NCBI GenBank assembly: GCA_000146045.2
Contig: BK006938.2
Coordinates: 960,001 to 1,024,000, forward strand
Source of the DNA: TPA_inf: Saccharomyces
Lineage: Eukaryota
DNA length: 64,000 nucleotides
Direction of reading: 5' to 3'
Part shown: piece by piece, positions 20,974 through 57,278 of the stretch
Layout: each line of letters begins with the position of its first letter
Position numbering within the stretch: the first letter of the stretch is position 1
Notes under the pieces: model-generated
The model's database searches: none
Seen by the model: the letters and a program-made list of their open reading frames with translations, nothing else
What the model was told of the DNA's origin: nothing
Made by a program: the position numbers and the translations under genes

Positions 20974-21055
20974 CGACAACTGCAGGACTCGAACCTGCGC
21001 GGGCAAAGCCCAAAAGATTTCTAATCTTTCGCCTTAACCACTCGGCCAAGTTGCC
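20974..21055 (-). tRNA. tS(AGA): tRNA-Ser (anticodon AGA)
   Basis: The reverse complement reads GGCAACTTGGCCGAGTGGTTAAGGCGAAAGATTAGAAATCTTTTGGGCTTTGCCCGCGCAGGTTCGAGTCCTGCAGTTGTCG. It has a long variable arm, a T-loop GGTTCGAGTCC and an AGA anticodon. Confidence 0.9.
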
Positions 21056-21143: not shown

Positions 21144-21170
21144 TGTTGGAATAAAAATCCACTATCGTCT
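21144..21170 (+). repeat. 5' fragment (27 bp) of an older solo delta LTR, split by the Ty2 insertion
   Basis: TGTTGGAATAAAAATCCACTATCGTCT is an LTR start. It continues at 27135-27149 and again at 32643 onward (see findings). Confidence 0.7.
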
Positions 21171-21461
21171 TGTTGGAATAAAAATCAACTATCATCTACT
21201 AACTAGTATTTACGTTACTAGTATATTATCATATACGGTGTTAGAAGATGACGCAAATGATGAGAAATAGTCATCTAAATTAGTGGAAGCTGAAACGCAA
21301 GGATTGATAATGTAATAGGATCAATGAATATTAACATATAAAATGATGATAATAATATTTATAGAATTGTATAGAATTGCAGATTCCCTTTTATGGATTC
21401 CTAAATCCTCGAGGAGAACTTCTAGTATATCTACATACCTAATATTATAGCCTTAATCACA

Positions 21462-22778
21462 ATGGAATCCCAACAATTACATCAAAATCCACATTCTCTA
21501 CATGGTAGCGCCGCTGCTTCGGTTACTTCTAAGGAAGTCCCATCAAATCAAGATCCGTTAGCCGTTTCAGCTTCCAATTTACCGGAATTTGATAGAGATT
21601 CCACTAAGGTTAATTCTCAACAAGAGACAACACCTGGGACATCAGCTGTTCCAGAGAACCATCATCATGTCTCTCCTCAACCTGCTTCAGTACCACCTCC
21701 ACAGAATGGACAGTACCAACAGCACGGCATGATGACCCCAAACAAAGCTATGGCCTCTAACTGGGCACATTACCAACAACCATCTATGATGACGTGTTCA
21801 CATTATCAAACGTCACCTGCGTATTATCAACCGGACCCACACTATCCGCTGCCACAGTATATCCCACCGCTGAGTACTTCCTCACCTGATCCAATCGATT
21901 CACAGAATCAACACTCTGAAGTACCTCAAGCTAAGACAAAGGTGAGAAATAACGTCTTACCACCACACACTTTAACATCAGAAGAAAACTTTTCTACATG
22001 GGTTAAATTTTACATCAGATTTTTGAAGAACTCTAATCTCGGTGACATAATTCCAAATGACCAGGGTGAAATCAAAAGACAAATGACTTATGAAGAACAT
22101 GCGTATATATACAATACCTTCCAAGCATTTGCCCCATTTCATTTATTGCCAACATGGGTAAAACAAATTTTAGAAATTAATTATGCTGACATCCTTACAG
22201 TCCTTTGTAAAAGTGTGTCCAAAATGCAAACTAACAATCAAGAATTAAAGGATTGGATAGCTCTTGCCAACCTTGAGTACGACGGAAGTACATCTGCTGA
22301 TACATTTGAAATTACAGTCAGTACGATCATTCAGAGGCTAAAAGAAAACAATATCAATGTTAGCGACAGATTGGCCTGTCAACTAATACTTAAAGGTCTA
22401 TCCGGTGATTTCAAATACCTACGTAATCAATATCGTACCAAAACGAACATGAAACTTTCCCAATTATTCGCTGAAATTCAATTAATATATGACGAAAATA
22501 AAATCATGAATCTAAATAAACCGTCCCAATACAAACAACACAGCGAATACAAAAATGTTTCTCGCACATCTCCAAACACGACTAACACGAAGGTTACAAG
22601 TCGTAATTATCATAGAACAAATAGTTCAAAACCAAGAGCAGCAAAAGCTCACAATATTGCTACATCCAGTAAATTCTCAAGGGTGAACAATGATCACATT
22701 AATGAATCAACCGTTTCATCACAATACTTAAGCGATGACAACGAACTTAGTCTTAGGCCAGCAACAGAAAGAATCTAA
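21462..22778 (+). CDS. Ty2 TYA (Gag), 438 aa
   Basis: [26 protein letters not shown]... The ATG lies inside the 5' LTR. 438 aa is typical of Ty2 (Ty1 is 440). Confidence 0.9.
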
Positions 22779-25700: not shown

Positions 25701-26775
25701 TTTAATAAATTGTTGCGACATGCAAGAAGTTCGCGGATGGTCATGCGTATTTAAGAATAGTCAAGTAACAATTTGCTTATTCGTTGATGATATGATATTA
25801 TTCAGCAAAGACTTAAATGCAAATAAGAAAATCATAACAACACTCAAGAAACAATACGATACAAAGATAATAAATCTGGGTGAAGGTGATAACGAAATTC
25901 AGTACGACATACTTGGATTAGAGATCAAATATCAAAGAAGCAAGTACATGAAATTAGGTATGGAAAAATCCTTGACAGAAAAATTACCCAAACTAAACGT
26001 ACCTTTGAACCCAAAAGGAAAGAAACTTAGAGCTCCAGGTCAACCAGGTCATTATATAGACCAGGATGAACTAGAAATAGATGAAGATGAATACAAAGAG
26101 AAAGTGCATGAAATGCAAAAGTTGATTGGTCTAGCTTCATATGTTGGATATAAATTTAGATTTGACTTACTATACTACATCAACACACTTGCTCAACATA
26201 TACTATTCCCCTCTAGGCAAGTTTTAGACATGACATATGAATTGATACAGTTCATATGGAATACGAGAGATAAGCAATTAATATGGCACAAAAGCAAACC
26301 TGTTAAGCCAACAAATAAATTAGTTGTTATAAGCGATGCATCGTATGGTAACCAACCGTATTATAAATCACAAATTGGCAACATATATTTACTTAATGGA
26401 AAAGTGATTGGAGGAAAGTCGACAAAGGCTTCGTTAACATGCACTTCAACTACAGAAGCAGAAATACACGCAGTCAGTGAAGCTATACCGCTATTGAATA
26501 ACCTCAGTCACCTTGTGCAAGAACTTAACAAGAAACCAATTATTAAAGGCTTACTTACTGATAGTAGATCAACGATCAGTATAATTAAGTCTACAAATGA
26601 AGAGAAATTTAGAAACAGATTTTTTGGCACAAAGGCAATGAGACTTAGAGATGAAGTATCAGGTAATAATTTATACGTATACTACATCGAGACCAAGATG
26701 AACATTGCTGATGTGATGACAAAACCTCTTCCGATAAAAACATTTAAACTATTAACTAACAAATGGATTCATTAG
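22752..26775 (+). CDS. Ty2 TYB (Pol: protease-integrase-RT-RNase H), expressed as a TYA-TYB fusion by +1 frameshift
   Basis: CTT-AGG-C slippery heptamer at 22752-22758 in the TYA frame. The +1 frame stays open to 26775. Integrase HHCC/DDE and RT YVDD (FVDDM) motifs are present. Confidence 0.85.
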
Positions 26776-27134
26776 ATCTATTACATTATGGGTGGTATGT
26801 TGGAATAAAAATCAACTATCATCTACTAACTAGTATTTACGTTACTAGTATATTATCATATACGGTGTTAGAAGATGACGCAAATGATGAGAAATAGTCA
26901 TCTAAATTAGTGGAAGCTGAAACGCAAGGATTGATAATGTAATAGGATCAATGAATATTAACATATAAAATGATGATAATAATATTTATAGAATTGTATA
27001 GAATTGCAGATTCCCTTTTATGGATTCCTAAATCCTCGAGGAGAACTTCTAGTATATCTACATACCTAATATTATAGCCTTAATCACAATGGAATCCCAA
27101 CAATTACATCAAAATCCACATTCTCTACACGTCT

Positions 27135-27149
27135 ATCAACTAATAGTTA
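27135..27149 (+). repeat. Middle fragment (15 bp) of the older solo delta, lying between the Ty2 and Ty1 insertions
   Basis: ATCAACTAATAGTTA continues the LTR sequence that was interrupted at 21170. Confidence 0.65.
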
Positions 27150-27533
27150 TGAGATATATGTGGGTAATTAGATAATTGTTGGGATTCCATTGTTGATAAA
27201 GGCTATAATATTAGGTATACAGAATATACTAGAAGTTCTCCTCGAGGATTTAGGAATCCATAAAAGGGAATCTGCAATTCTACACAATTCTATAAATATT
27301 ATTATCATCGTTTTATATGTTAATATTCATTGATCCTATTACATTATCAATCCTTGCGTTTCAGCTTCCACTAATTTAGATGACTATTTCTCATCATTTG
27401 CGTCATCTTCTAACACCGTATATGATAATATACTAGTAACGTAAATACTAGTTAGTAGATGATAGTTGATTTTTATTCCAACATACCACCCATAATGTAA
27501 TAGATCTAATGAATCCATTTGTTTGTTAATAGT

Positions 27534-30500
27534 TTAAATGTTTTTATCGGAAGAGGTTTTGTGTTTGTGCCATATTAATTGTTTATCTCTAGTGTCCCAC
27601 ATGAATTGTATTAACTCATATGTCATGTCTAAAACTTGCCTAGAGGGGAATAGTATATGTTGAGCAAGTGTGTTGATGTAGTATAGTAAGTCAAATCTAA
27701 ATTTATATCCAACATATGAAGCTAGACCAATCAACTTTTGCATTTCATGTACCTTCTCTTTGTATTCATCTTCATCTATTTCTAGTTCATCCTGGTCTAT
27801 ATAAAGACCTGGTTGACCTGGAGCGCTAAGTTTTCTTCCTTTTGGATTCAAAGGTACGTTTAATTTGGGTATTTTCTCAGTTAATGAGTTTTCCATACCT
27901 AATTTCATGTATTTACCTCTTTGATATTTGATTTCTAAGCCAAGTATGTCATATTGAATTTCCTCATCACTTTCGCCTAGATTTATAATCTTGGTGTCGT
28001 ATTGCATCTTAAGCTTCTCTATAATTCTTTTGTTTGAATTTAGATTTTTGCTAAACAATACCATATCATCTACGAATAAACAAATTGTCACTTGACTGTT
28101 TTTAAATACGCATGACCATCCACGAACTTCTTCCATACCACATTGTTGTATCAGGTATGATTTGATAGTTTCGTACCAGTTCGCTCCACTTTGTTTCAAT
28201 CCATAAAGTGATTTCTTCAAACGTATCAACTTATCATTCATTCCTAAATGTGGTGGAGGTCTTATGTATAATTCTTCTTTGATGTCTGCATACAAATATG
28301 CCGAAGATATGTCTAATTGTGTAATATAGTAGTTATTGTCTAATGCAAGTGACAGGGATGTCATTAATGCATAGTGATGTACGGTATTGGATTGCATGCC
28401 TGAGTCGTAAGTGTCAGGATGCTGAATATCACCTCTTGCAACAAATCTAGCTTTATGAGTACCGTCACGTTTCTTGTTGAAGATAAACATTGAGTTTATT
28501 ACTCTTTTAGGGTCTATTTCTTTTCTGTCATAATATTCGTCAGTGTCCCAAGTTTTCATCTTCAACAGTTGATTGACTTCTTTGTGGTATGCCTCGATAT
28601 ATTTTTCTTTTTCTTTAATATCTTTATTATAGGTGATTGCCTCATCGTATCGTAAGGTTGTCCGTATTGGTTTGATTGATTTTACTGCTTTTACAGCTGC
28701 AATCAGGTGAATTCGTTTCTTCGATCTCGGAGGTTCTAAACTACGCATATTCTTAGTATTCCATGTGTCTCGTGATACCTTAATTTCAGTTTCATTATCT
28801 TCTAATGATCTTTTCTTACTGTTGATAGTAGTATAGGCATTAGAGTCACCAATACCACCCAAACTGGAATTAGTTTGACGAGAATTTATCGGTGGGAGTT
28901 CTTTAAATGGGTCAGGGAATTCGGTAGGAGATTCTGGAGGTAGATCAGGGAGTGGGAGATCAGCGATGATAGATTCCTCGGTATTCTGTTCAGAAACAGT
29001 AGTTGGCGTTTTGATAGGAACAATATTGTGCGATGAATTATTTTCCGGTGGAGAAGCATCGATTGAAGGTGAACGGTGTATAATCCTTTTCTCAGTCTCT
29101 TGGTCACTTATCTGCGGAACAGTTTTGTTGTTGGTACCACCCGTACTGGATATTGGTACGTTTGTATGATTAGTCTCATTTTCACTGTACGAGTCTGAGT
29201 GTCTGAAATCTTTAGATTTACTGGCGTGCGACGACTCATGTGTGTTAGATTGGGACATGGGAGCAAGTAAAGGAACATTTAATTTATGCATACCACCCGA
29301 ACCGGTACTCTCGATATTGGAAATTTGGGGGGTGCTAGATCTCTTCTTTGATGGAAGAATATTAGATTCAGATATGTTGGGGTCAACTTCTCTGGGTGCG
29401 CGAATATTGGTTTTAGAAACACGTTTCGAATCTTCAGTATGAGTTGACGGAGGTGTGGAATCGGTTGGACTCACAGCTTTTGAAAGGACATTTCTCGGTT
29501 GCTCAGGATGTAGTTCAATGTCGGATTGGAAGTCATGGTCAGATTCTATGTTAAGATCATTGGATTCTTGGATCTCATTTGACGCAATGAACGAATGATA
29601 TGAAGCAGTTAAACGGTTTAAGTCTTCATCGAAAGTGAGTGCGTCGTAATTGAATTGATCTAATCTGGATTCCTTGCCCTGAAGAATAACATAGTTAGTT
29701 GTATCTACTGTCTTCTTTAAGGATGGAAGATAGATGATATATCCATAAGAGTTTCGAGACGGATGTAGAGCGTAGCCTGGGATGCCACGAGGATGTATTT
29801 TGGAGTTAGGGTTGTGATCATTGACGATAACAGGTTGACCGAAAGGTAACAAAGTACTGATATCAAGTCCTGCCAAGCCAGCATGTTGTCTTGCAGATTT
29901 TTTGCTTTTAGGTGAAGCTAGTGAATTTCTCACAATAGTAGAAAATTCGATTGCAGAGAACCATAAATGGTTCGGTAAACCACTACATTGCAGTTGAGTA
30001 CGGCAGTCATCTAATAAGGTACGGTTTAGCCGTTCAGCGACTCCATGTGCTCGGGAATCCGCTGTGGTTGTATAGCATGGAGTTATACCATTTTTTTCAA
30101 GGAATTTATGGAGAGTTCTGTTAGTATACTCAGAACCACGGTCCATTTGTATAACCAAGACACTGGCCTGAAACTGGTTTTTAATAAAAGCTAGTATCGT
30201 AGTAAAAACATCGAGGATAGAGTCCTCGCGACGGTCGTGTAATGGATAAACCCAACGGAATTTTGTTGTCTCATCAGTAAATGAGATGAAATAGGATGGT
30301 GCACTATTTGGTAGGTTGTGAACTGGACCAAATATGTCAGTATGTAGGTATTGAAAGGGTTCGTATGAATTTTGGTATTTTAGTCGTGAACCTTTGATAT
30401 GTCTGTGTTTGGTGCTTTTGCCGATTAAACAATCAGGACATTGATAGTCAATAGCACTAGACCAGTCGACATCTGATTCGTTAAAATACGTGATGGTGTT

Positions 30501-31046
30501 ATTTTTAAGTGAGTATCGAATTGTCTGTGCATTGGCATGCGCAAGCATTCGATGAATGAAAGGATAAGGATATTTGCGTGTACTTTCACTTGTATGGACA
30601 TTATTGATGGTGGGTACGGAGATATTTGATGGAAGCAAGTACTTTTTAGATACCCAGTAAAAGTCTCCATATTTTACGATAGGTGCAAGTACAGTGCCGT
30701 CAGACCGTTCTAAGACGTTTTTGGTAAAGCATGCTGTGATATCTACTGCAGCCAATTCATTCAAACTGAGTAAGTCATAGGCTATGTTAGGAGTGTGCAA
30801 TACCTTTATTGATGTTTTGGTGTTGTCCTGGAAGTGAAATTGTAGGTCACCAATAGCGTTAATTGGTATATTTCTTTTTTGAGCATCAACTACGTTTATG
30901 TCAGGATTAGATGATGCTGAGTGTATGTGATGAGCAGATCTTATAAGGGTTCGTGATGCTCCTGAATCGAGAAGGAGGTGTCCAGGGAGTTCATCATCAG
31001 AATGATTAGTATGATTTACTGTAGATTCAGTAAGTTTCTGGCCTAA
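27534..31046 (-). pseudogene. Ty1 TYB, truncated: an internal ~430-bp deletion removes the RNase H region and shifts the frame
   Basis: CTTAGGC frameshift heptamer at 31040-31046. The frame is open to a stop at 27534, ending ...[14 protein letters not shown]. The intact Ty2 copy continues ...[26 protein letters not shown]... for about 170 more residues. The TTG at 30800 used by the ORF track is not the real start. Confidence 0.8.
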
Positions 31047-32349
31047 GATGAAGGTCGTGCTTATTGTTCAATTGAATCGGTTCAGTAGTTGATTTACTGA
31101 TGGAATCGTTGTCCGTGCTGGGAGAGTTATTAGATGTGGATACATTGTGAGCCCTGGCTGTTTTCGATTTCGAATTATTTGTTTTTTGAGGATTCCGAGC
31201 TATAACTTTGGGTTTGGTTGTATTCGTATAGCTGCGAGAATCATTCTTCTCATCACTCGGATTTCTCCTGTAATTAGGTTTACTGTTTCTCGATCCCTGT
31301 TGTTCTTCATAAATAGCATGGATATCTAAGAACAGTTCAGCGACTGTCATATTTAGATGTCGATGACGTGTGTAGCGTAAAAATTTATATTCGCCAGATA
31401 GACCTCTCATAATTAATTGGCATGCGACCTTGTTATTGATATGAATGCCATTATTGTTCAGTCTGTCGATAATGTTTGTGACTTTTGTTTCAAATGCATC
31501 TGCAGGTGTACTGCCATTATATTGCAAATTTGCCAGGGTCACAATGTCGTTTGCCTCTTGGGTATCAGATTGCATTTTTTCAATACTTTTGGAAAGAATT
31601 TTCATGATATCCGTATAATCAACGGATAGGATGTCTTTGACCCAGGTAGGTAGGAATTGAGAGGGAGCAAATATTTGAAAAGTGTTATACAAGAAGGTGA
31701 GTTCATCATCAGTGATCTGACGTACGGGTTTTCCGTTTACTGTCGGAATAATACCACCGAGATTCGAGTTTTGTAAAAATTTGATGTATGTTTTAACCCA
31801 ATTTGGAAAGTCATTAGGTGAGGTTAACATTGGTGGTGGTCTGACATATTTTTTAGTGGATGTCATATCAGAGTCCGCTGAGGATGAATCAGTAAATGTA
31901 TTACCTGACTCAGGTGATGGAGTGCTCAGAGGCGTTCCAACTGATGATGGATACTGCGGAAACTGTGATTGTGGCCCAGGTGGAAAGTACATAGGCGACA
32001 TTTGATAAGGTGTATACGGAATCATAGATGGGTGTCCGTAAAATGACCAACCAGATGGATTGGCTTGGTTTTGGGTCATCATGCACTGCTGTGGGTACGG
32101 CCCATTCTGTGGAGGTGGTACTGAAGCAGGTTGAGGAGAGGCATGATGGGGGTTCTCTGGAACAGCTGATGAAGCAGGTGTTGTTGTCTGTTGAGAGTTA
32201 GCCTTAGTGGAAGCCTTCTCACATTCTTCTGTTTTGGAAGCTGAAACGTCTAACGGATCTTGATTTGTGTGGACTTCCTTAGAAGTAACCGAAGCACAGG
32301 CGCTACCATGAGAAATGGGTGAATGTTGAGATAATTGTTGGGATTCCAT
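31027..32349 (-). CDS. Ty1 TYA (Gag), 440 aa
   Basis: [42 protein letters not shown]... 440 aa. The ATG lies inside the 5' LTR. Confidence 0.9.
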
Positions 32350-32642
32350 TGTTGATAAAGGCTATAATATTAGGTATACAGAATATACTAGAAGTTCTCC
32401 TCAAGGATTTAGGAATCCATAAAAGGGAATCTGCAATTCTACACAATTCTATAAATATTATTATCATCGTTTTATATGTTAATATTCATTGATCCTATTA
32501 CATTATCAATCCTTGCGTTTCAGCTTCCACTAATTTAGATGACTATTTCTCATCATTTGCGTCATCTTCTAACACCGTATATGATAATATACTAGTAACG
32601 TAAATACTAGTTAGTAGATGATAGTTGATTTTTATTCCAACA

Positions 32643-32826
32643 AGTTATATTATCAATATATTATCATATACGGTGTTAAGATGATGACATAAGTTATGAG
32701 AAGCTATCATCGAAGTTAGAGGAAGCTGAAGTGCAAGAATTGTTTCATATGTGATTTATGAACATTTAGCATGATTTATTGTCATATTGAGGTATGGTAT
32801 GTCGATGATAAAACAAATCCAACAAT
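32643..32826 (+). repeat. 3' portion of the older solo delta LTR (diverged and truncated), directly upstream of tG(GCC)
   Basis: AGTTATATTATCAATATATTATCATATACGGTGTTAAGATGATGACATAAGTTATGAGAAGCT... is colinear with the delta-variant sequence after the 15-bp piece at 27135-27149. It ends in ...AAATCCAACAATT. Confidence 0.7.
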
Positions 32827-32831
32827 TGTGA

Positions 32832-32902
32832 GCGCAAGTGGTTTAGTGGTAAAATCCAACGTTGCCATCGTTGGGCCCCCGGTTCGATTCCGGGCTTGCG
32901 CA
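32832..32902 (+). tRNA. tG(GCC): tRNA-Gly (anticodon GCC)
   Basis: GCGCAAGTGGTTTAGTGGTAAAATCCAACGTTGCCATCGTTGGGCCCCCGGTTCGATTCCGGGCTTGCGCA, followed by a T6 Pol III terminator. Confidence 0.92.
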
Positions 32903-33133
32903 CTTTTTTAGCAACTATTAGCGATCAATATGAAGGGTTTAGAGACTAGGTGCCTGCCTCGCCTACTCAGCATTCGTTCAGTCAATATTTTATATCACCG
33001 TTAATAATGATTAAGCAGTTTTTTTTGTTAATAAATCCGGTCATCGGGCTAACTAATCTTCAAGAACAACTAGACGGTCATCCCCTTTTGCTTCATAACT
33101 TCTCCTTATAATATAAAAACTTACAAAACGACC

Positions 33134-57206: not shown

Positions 57207-57278
57207 CTCCGAAGCGGGGAGTCGAACCCCGGTCTCCACGGTGAGAACGTGATGTGATAGCCGTTACACTACATCGGA
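57207..57278 (-). tRNA. tE(CUC): tRNA-Glu (anticodon CUC)
   Basis: The reverse complement reads TCCGATGTAGTGTAACGGCTATCACATCACGTTCTCACCGTGGAGACCGGGGTTCGACTCCCCGCTTCGGAG. Anticodon loop TTCTCAC, T-loop GGTTCGACTCC. Confidence 0.9.

Follow-up and report, generated by a model that had tools for sequence, protein, structure and literature searches.

The 64,000-nt window analyzed here is a stretch of chromosome IV of Saccharomyces cerevisiae S288C (contig BK006938.2, positions 960,001 to 1,024,000 of the forward strand), and it carries two Ty retrotransposons arranged tail to tail, a plus-strand Ty2 followed by a minus-strand Ty1. The Ty1 is, with near certainty, the catalogued S288C copy YDRCTy1-3, in which a 425-bp internal deletion has removed the whole of the RNase H domain. 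It is already known as an annotated, ordinary defective Ty1 copy of the reference genome. All positions given are those of the window, and the two elements are as follows.

27150-32642, minus strand: Ty1 YDRCTy1-3 from long terminal repeat (LTR) to LTR, 5493 bp, TGTTGG...TCTCA, with Gag-Pol identity to Q07793
21171-27129, plus strand: Ty2 YDRWTy2-3, 5959 bp, with identical LTRs and a CGTCT target duplication at 21166-21170 and 27130-27134

The Gag-Pol fusion proteins of both elements were rebuilt across the CTTAGGC +1 frameshift, giving products of 1770 (Ty2) and 1604 (Ty1) amino acids. The Ty1 product is an exact match to Q07793 / NP_058148.1 (Transposon Ty1-DR4 Gag-Pol, YDR261C-D), and the Ty2 product matches Q07791 / NP_058146.3 (Transposon Ty2-DR3 Gag-Pol) just as exactly. 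With Gag-Pol identical residue for residue, the element and YDRCTy1-3 / YDR261C-D are the same object. Intact Ty1 DNA for comparison consisted of two complete elements of another strain (L011 and L012, from GCA_012275245.1) and four contigs that share the exact 30-nt left flank of the deletion (L013-L016); a metagenome scan with this left flank returned two intact relatives. Across its first 5089 nt the copy is 97.9% identical to L011, against 76-89% for its internal regions compared with the adjacent Ty2. SGD reportedly calls the TYB of YDRCTy1-3 'mutant and probably non-functional'. In the passages retrieved from the literature naming YDRCTy1-3 or YDR261C-D the RNase H deletion goes unmentioned, and no description of the junction at the nucleotide level (a 5-nt ACAAA plus one non-parental C) was found in those on YDRCTy1-3.

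Measured by alignment offsets, the gap is 425 bp relative to the adjacent Ty2, and it has the same size relative to the intact Ty1 elements L011, L012 and L013; L014-L016 carry the same intact left-flank sequence. The value of 425 comes from direct indexing, and a BLAST offset of 426 reflects a gap inserted to lengthen the left alignment. A preliminary description of the window, made from the letters alone, had proposed a deletion of ~430 bp: the deletion stands, with its size corrected to 425 bp, and in alignments with both Ty2 and intact Ty1 the gap falls in the C-terminus of the reverse transcriptase (RT)-RNase H region, in the RNase H domain itself. Adding the missing segment to the 5493 bp of the copy gives 5918 bp, a normal Ty1 length and in agreement with the shortfall from ~5.9 kb that had been noted.

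Since 425 equals 3 x 141 + 2, the reading frame shifts. The deletion takes out Gag-Pol codons 1598 to about 1739 (of 1755), so that the protein of this copy is normal to K1595, continues with N1596H, K1597 and seven frameshifted residues, and ends at 1604 amino acids. The N1596H substitution is due to the non-parental C at the junction, intact copies having AAC (Asn) where this one has CAC (His). The shifted frame and altered C-terminus had both been recognized in the preliminary description, and the TYB frame indeed ends at a stop codon at 27534-27536. The segments concerned are listed here together with their Ty2 equivalents.

27534-31040, minus strand: truncated TYB (pol), with protease (DSGAS), integrase (rve) and RT (RVT_2, FVDD) present and RNase H absent
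27534-27536, minus strand: premature TAA stop resulting from the frameshift, end of the TYB frame
27506-27556, minus strand: remnant of the original TYB C-terminus, now out of frame, with the original TAG stop at 27506-27508, from comparison with intact copies
26299-26723, plus strand: Ty2 segment equivalent to the missing 425 bp, inside the RNase H coding region
26200-26772, plus strand: C-terminal 191 codons of Ty2, taken in place of the lost Ty1 domain for modelling, which gave matches to RNase H folds

Pfam searches with the Pol open reading frames (ORFs) of both elements gave protease-like, integrase and RVT_2 matches and no match to an RNase H family, even for the intact C-terminus of Ty2, and a single-sequence search of the PDB returned a chance match alone. 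Because these searches were uninformative, a profile and a structure model were built. An exhaustive HMMER search with the 191 C-terminal Ty2 residues found 3675 relatives, and in an alignment of 30 copia-type sequences (Ty2 and 29 diverse others) D46, E88, D121 and D171 are invariant and E86 nearly so. Searched against the PDB, the profile gave eight matches, of which the best seven were HIV-1 RNase H domains, all of them weak (E 0.17-0.7). The AlphaFold2 model of the Ty2 C-terminus reached a mean local confidence (pLDDT) of 91.5 and a predicted template modelling score (pTM) of 0.83. When it was compared with the PDB by Foldseek, the best 50 matches were all RNase H (top E = 6e-7), including the bacterial, archaeal and human enzymes and the RT-RNase H proteins of human immunodeficiency virus (HIV), murine leukemia virus (MLV) and foamy virus.

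The deletion corresponds to residues 32-173 of the 191-residue stretch, and all D-E-D-D columns as well as E86 lie inside it; by arithmetic, the catalytic residues lost are D1610, E1650/1652, D1685 and D1735 in Ty1 Gag-Pol numbering. On the strength of the alignment and the modelled fold we regard it as confirmed that the deleted segment is the entire RNase H domain, with a predicted type 1 fold and its four conserved D-E-D-D carboxylates. The loss of the RNase H coding region claimed in the preliminary description is thereby borne out, and it extends to the whole catalytic domain. Cleavage of the RNA in RNA/DNA hybrids is an established activity of Ty1 RT-RNase H.

Apart from this domain the element is well preserved, as the following features show.

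32309-32642, minus strand: 5' LTR, 334 bp, with a variant U5 end ...CTCAACATTCACCCATTTCTCA
27150-27483, minus strand: 3' LTR, 334 bp, with a canonical-type U5 end ...CTAATTACCCACATATATCTCA
32299-32308, minus strand: primer-binding site TGGTAGCGCC, intact, directly 3' of the 5' LTR
27484-27491, minus strand: 3' polypurine tract GGGTGGTA, intact, adjoining the 3' LTR
31027-32349, minus strand: TYA (gag) ORF, 440 amino acids, intact
31041-31047, minus strand: +1 frameshift heptamer CTTAGGC joining TYA to TYB, in frame
27145-27149, no strand: Ty1 target-site duplication, copy 1, AGTTA on the plus strand and TAACT on the element strand
32643-32647, no strand: Ty1 target-site duplication, copy 2, AGTTA on the plus strand and TAACT on the element strand

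The LTRs are thus of the expected Ty1 form (~334 bp, starting with TG and ending with CA, within a 5-bp target duplication), and the priming sites are in their usual places, the primer-binding site, complementary to initiator tRNA-Met, adjoining the 5' LTR and the polypurine tract adjoining the 3' LTR. The Pfam domain order is rve, SH3-like and RVT_2, the DSGAS and FVDD motifs are also there, and what is missing from the protease-integrase-RT-RNase H series in this copy is the last member. Judging by its reading frames, the copy would still be able to make Gag, protease, integrase and the polymerase core of RT. Intact Ty1 elements (L011, L012 and L013-L016) have the LTRs, primer-binding site, polypurine tract, gag, the +1 frameshift site and the protease-integrase-RT part in common with it, and differ in keeping the 425 bp of RNase H and the AAC codon.

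Cis-acting sequences are therefore kept and an essential pol function is lost, a combination characteristic of a non-autonomous derivative. The preliminary description had deduced that this copy cannot replicate autonomously, and the deduction is sound: because all four catalytic residues are gone, YDRCTy1-3 should be non-autonomous, having no RNase H of its own with which its Pol could complete reverse transcription. It should nevertheless remain a possible substrate for mobilization in trans by the proteins of other Ty1 copies, since all cis-acting sequences survive (both LTRs, the primer-binding site, the polypurine tract and the 5' packaging region). For a mini-Ty1 supplied with Gag and Pol in trans, 380 nt at the 5' end and 357 nt at the 3' end are enough (PMC5454406), and the uninterrupted 3' terminus kept in YDRCTy1-3 is 413 nt. 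Like the engineered mini-Ty1 of the mini-Ty1/helper-Ty1 system, which is internally deleted and retains the 5' packaging and priming region together with at least the last 357 nt while Gag and Pol are provided in trans (PMC5454406), it thus combines an internal deletion with preserved ends. Unlike mini-Ty1, it is natural, it has lost RNase H only and still encodes Gag, protease, integrase and the RT core, and its mobilization in trans is a prediction. For practical purposes, one 'full-length' Ty1 of the reference genome is defective for RNase H and is not to be counted as autonomous in estimates of copy number or activity. Beyond correct annotation, the significance of this is small.

The junction itself was defined by comparison with the intact copies.

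27557-27564, minus strand: deletion junction, from comparison with intact Ty1 copies

The reverse complement of 27549-27573 is ATGGCACAAACACAAAACCTCTTCC, exactly as quoted in the preliminary description. Position 27564 is the last base that can come from the left parent only and 27557 the first that can come from the right parent only; between them, 27558-27562 is the microhomology ACAAA and 27563 is a C (G on the plus strand) of neither parent. In intact copies the left parent reads ATGGCACAAAA followed by ACAAA and CCTACC, and the right parent, 425 nt downstream, reads ...GATGTGATG followed by ACAAA and ACCTCTTCC, with GATG directly before the ACAAA. The motif thus occurs at both sites in intact copies and once in the product. 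A clean deletion through the shared ACAAA predicts ATGGCACAAAAACAAAACC, or in longer context ATGGCACAAAAACAAAACCTCTTCC; what is observed has the same length as the prediction and differs from it by one base, the C at 27563, a position occupied by A in the left parent and by G in the right. The sequence TGGCACAAACACAAAACCTC spans the junction.

It had been suggested at the outset that the breakpoints share ACAAAA(C). Short direct homology does flank the deletion, but in another register: the real overlap is the second ACAAA, 5 nt long and 6 nt further 3'. The earlier pairing, in which the right-hand ACAAAAC is set against the first ACAAAA, in GGCACAAAA, has to be discarded: its product would be GGCACAAAACCTC, and the sequence present is 6 nt longer. 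Microhomology of at least 5 nt is found at 0.5-0.7% of random deletion positions in intact Ty1 (chance p ~0.006), so that the 5-nt ACAAA is unlikely to be accidental. The junction C is private to YDRCTy1-3. Each of the six intact Ty1 DNAs has an A there, and among the proteins compared the corresponding residues are NK in 20, SK in four (the Ty2 type) and HK in this copy alone.

No second copy of the junction or of the truncated ORF was found by exact ORF look-ups, a junction scan of genome contigs and a protein search with the frameshifted tail (5 candidates), searches of low power given that Ty repeats rarely assemble in short-read contigs; nor did they show the same deletion at several loci, as spread would produce. 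The intact left flank had no match in a scan of viral contigs. An identical Gag product is encoded on 16 other contigs, which are at most 4.4 kb long and end before the 3' end of the element, so that the junction is not covered. Neither the intact S288C Gag-Pol fusions nor the truncated product is on record as an encoded gene, frameshift-joined products going unindexed.

We favor, at about an even chance of being right, an origin of the deletion by an RT template switch after terminal misincorporation over a deletion that followed integration. The error would have occurred during minus-strand synthesis of complementary DNA (cDNA), in the retrotransposition cycle that yielded this copy or a progenitor. 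Reading the RNA 3' to 5' through ...CCTCTTCC and then ACAAA, RT would have stalled after incorporating an incorrect or untemplated base, a G in the cDNA that corresponds to C in the sense strand. The growing cDNA could then have re-annealed by its 3' end 425 nt upstream at AACAAA, with five base pairs under a terminal mismatch, and synthesis would have gone on from there. RNase H activity for that cycle would have been supplied by intact RT-RNase H already in the particle. Such an origin is favored by the 5-nt microhomology, with its chance of ~0.006, and by the private non-parental C, which under the minus-strand model sits exactly at the border between the microhomology and the acceptor-templated sequence. 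RTs cannot proofread; they are known to add bases without a template and, once a wrong base has been incorporated, to change templates. Retroviral template-switch deletions between short direct repeats keep one copy of the repeat and can have an extra or mismatched base at the point of transfer, and in YDRCTy1-3, too, ACAAA stands at both donor and acceptor with a single copy kept. The retroviral deletions come from single-cycle experiments, however, whereas YDRCTy1-3 is known from its end product alone, for which an origin at the DNA level is also possible. If it did arise in this way, the junction is a natural example of how LTR retrotransposons yield non-autonomous derivatives, through a 5-nt microhomology and one non-parental base.

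The LTRs bear on the same question. A simple retrotransposition product should carry identical LTRs. The two LTRs of the Ty1 differ at one site (a T/C difference near LTR position 241) and in ~20 nt at the end of U5, and are otherwise identical. At the U5 end they carry two different known variants: that of the 5' LTR, CTCAACATTCACCCATTTCTCA, sets the N-terminus of Gag, and that of the 3' LTR, CTAATTACCCACATATATCTCA, is of the type found in L011, L012 and L014. This mismatch in U5, within an intact target duplication, points to a cDNA made from two co-packaged RNAs or to gene conversion. A two-RNA cDNA would imply template switching in the history of the element, and hence circumstantial support for an RT origin of the deletion.

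Several points weigh against a template switch by RT. A single genomic copy does not reveal whether the deletion came before or after integration. Replication slippage or microhomology-mediated end joining, accompanied by one polymerase error, would account for the junction as well, and so would slippage followed by an unrelated point mutation. The low-power searches described above found no second copy with the junction, and thus no sign of a mobilized deleted form, and the difference in U5 between the LTRs can equally be explained by gene conversion after integration.

The most serious competitor, possible although we consider it distinctly less probable than not, is that an intact Ty1 inserted and that 425 bp were deleted from it afterwards, through replication slippage or through microhomology-mediated break repair between the ACAAA blocks. 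A microhomology of 5 nt is typical of such repair, but a base from neither parent beside it is not predicted by proofreading replicases or simple annealing, and an extra polymerase error is needed. The break may have been provoked by a hairpin or cruciform formed by the tail-to-tail Ty2/Ty1 pair. The YDRWTy2-3 / YDRCTy1-3 pair at chromosome IV 981-992 kb, the same locus as that studied here, is the mitotic recombination hotspot HS4, and for its activity the two elements have to lie inverted, tail to tail, with a short spacer between them (PMC3616911). The junction lies ~420 bp from the center of symmetry of the pair. With a parent like L013, identity between the lost segment and the Ty2 arm would have been 94.6%, and the next 300 nt are 92-98% identical, so that the deletion interrupts what would be a ~1.1-kb inverted repeat of high identity. 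One may go further and regard the deletion as a repair scar of the HS4 fragile site, left by hairpin-provoked breaks that were healed by microhomology-mediated joining. If this were true, one arm would have lost 425 bp, which shortened a near-perfect inverted repeat from ~1.1 kb to ~0.41 kb, and RNase H would have disappeared as a side effect of palindrome instability and not of retrotransposition. Palindrome instability usually removes the center of symmetry, yet the deletion spares that of the inverted pair, and HS4 remains a hotspot with the deletion in place. The link between hotspot and deletion is a conjecture, and we think it improbable that the deletion is such a scar. The passages retrieved from the HS4 work (PMC3616911) have no mention of the RNase H deletion. 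Whatever its origin, the 425-bp asymmetry between the arms is relevant to modelling of the hairpin at HS4.

Two further explanations were considered. The junction might be the recombination point of a hybrid cDNA, formed by an out-of-register switch from Ty2 to Ty1 between co-packaged RNAs. The U3 of both Ty1 LTRs is almost identical to that of the Ty2 (21171-21502) and the R-U5 part is Ty1-like, an LTR structure of the type seen in the Ty1/2 hybrid subfamily that Carr et al. 2012 mention (PMC3511429). Identity to the adjacent Ty2 is 99% over the 339 nt on the 3' side of the junction, compared with 84% over the 1.4 kb on its 5' side. The identity to Ty2, however, shows no step at the junction, since it already stands at 92-98% in the 300 nt immediately 5' of it. 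In the intact L013 and L014 the flanks on either side match those of this copy and occur with either type of U3, so that one Ty1-type template is enough to account for the two of them. Too few diagnostic sites fall within the 79 coding nt on the 3' side for these to be assigned. With 92-98% identity over 300 nt on the 5' side and flanks common to intact copies, the junction was rejected as a Ty2/Ty1 hybrid breakpoint, and such an origin now seems very unlikely. Least probable of all, and in our view hardly to be expected, is an artefact of the reference, with 425 bp lost during propagation of the inverted pair as a clone in E. coli or by mis-assembly of the repeat. Long inverted repeats are unstable in E. 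coli, and in the collections searched neither the junction nor the truncated ORF turned up independently. Those empty searches had little power, though, because Ty repeats seldom assemble in short-read contigs (the longest contig with the identical Gag is 4.4 kb). The deletion is moreover clean, with both flanks and the target duplication intact, and the truncated product is retained in the current RefSeq and UniProt records. The S288C reference has reportedly been resequenced with the feature kept.

RNA folding of the intact RNase H region (L014:5790-6260, 471 nt) gave a structure more stable than shuffled controls (z = -3.5). A long-range helix that closes the region in this fold ends ~2 nt 5' of the right-hand ACAAA, which places the right breakpoint just 3' of it, and may be an RT pause site; a minimum free energy structure of this length is too unreliable to be taken as evidence.

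The spacer between the LTR ends of the two elements (27130-27149) is 20 bp long (CGTCTATCAACTAATAGTTA) and consists of both target duplications and 10 bp of an old delta; the HS4 paper puts it at 25-66 bp, varying with the counting of mismatches (PMC3616911). When the elements and one copy of each duplication are removed, 21144-21170, 27135-27149 and 32648-32742 rejoin into 137 continuous nt from the 5' part of an older canonical delta, with 96% identity to the LTR of L011. Ty2 and Ty1 therefore inserted 15 bp apart in the same solo-LTR remnant. The Ty2 LTRs (21171-21502 and 26798-27129) are 100% identical, which suggests that the Ty2 insertion is very recent.

Three tRNA genes were seen in the window, Ser-AGA (20974-21055, minus strand), Gly-GCC (32832-32903, plus strand) and Glu-CTC (57207-57278, minus strand). 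The Ty pair lies between Ser-AGA and Gly-GCC, which are 116 bp and 190 bp away from the element ends; this is the position to be expected from the targeting of Ty1 and Ty2 upstream of Pol III genes.

Ty1/Ty2 sequence also occurs on short contigs in bacterial records, namely L015 (Streptomyces narbonensis) and L016 (Simplicispira lacusdiani), and members of the Ty protein cluster appear under the names of Streptococcus uberis and Parabacteroides merdae. The Ty sequence in these bacterial records is most likely yeast DNA contaminating the assemblies.

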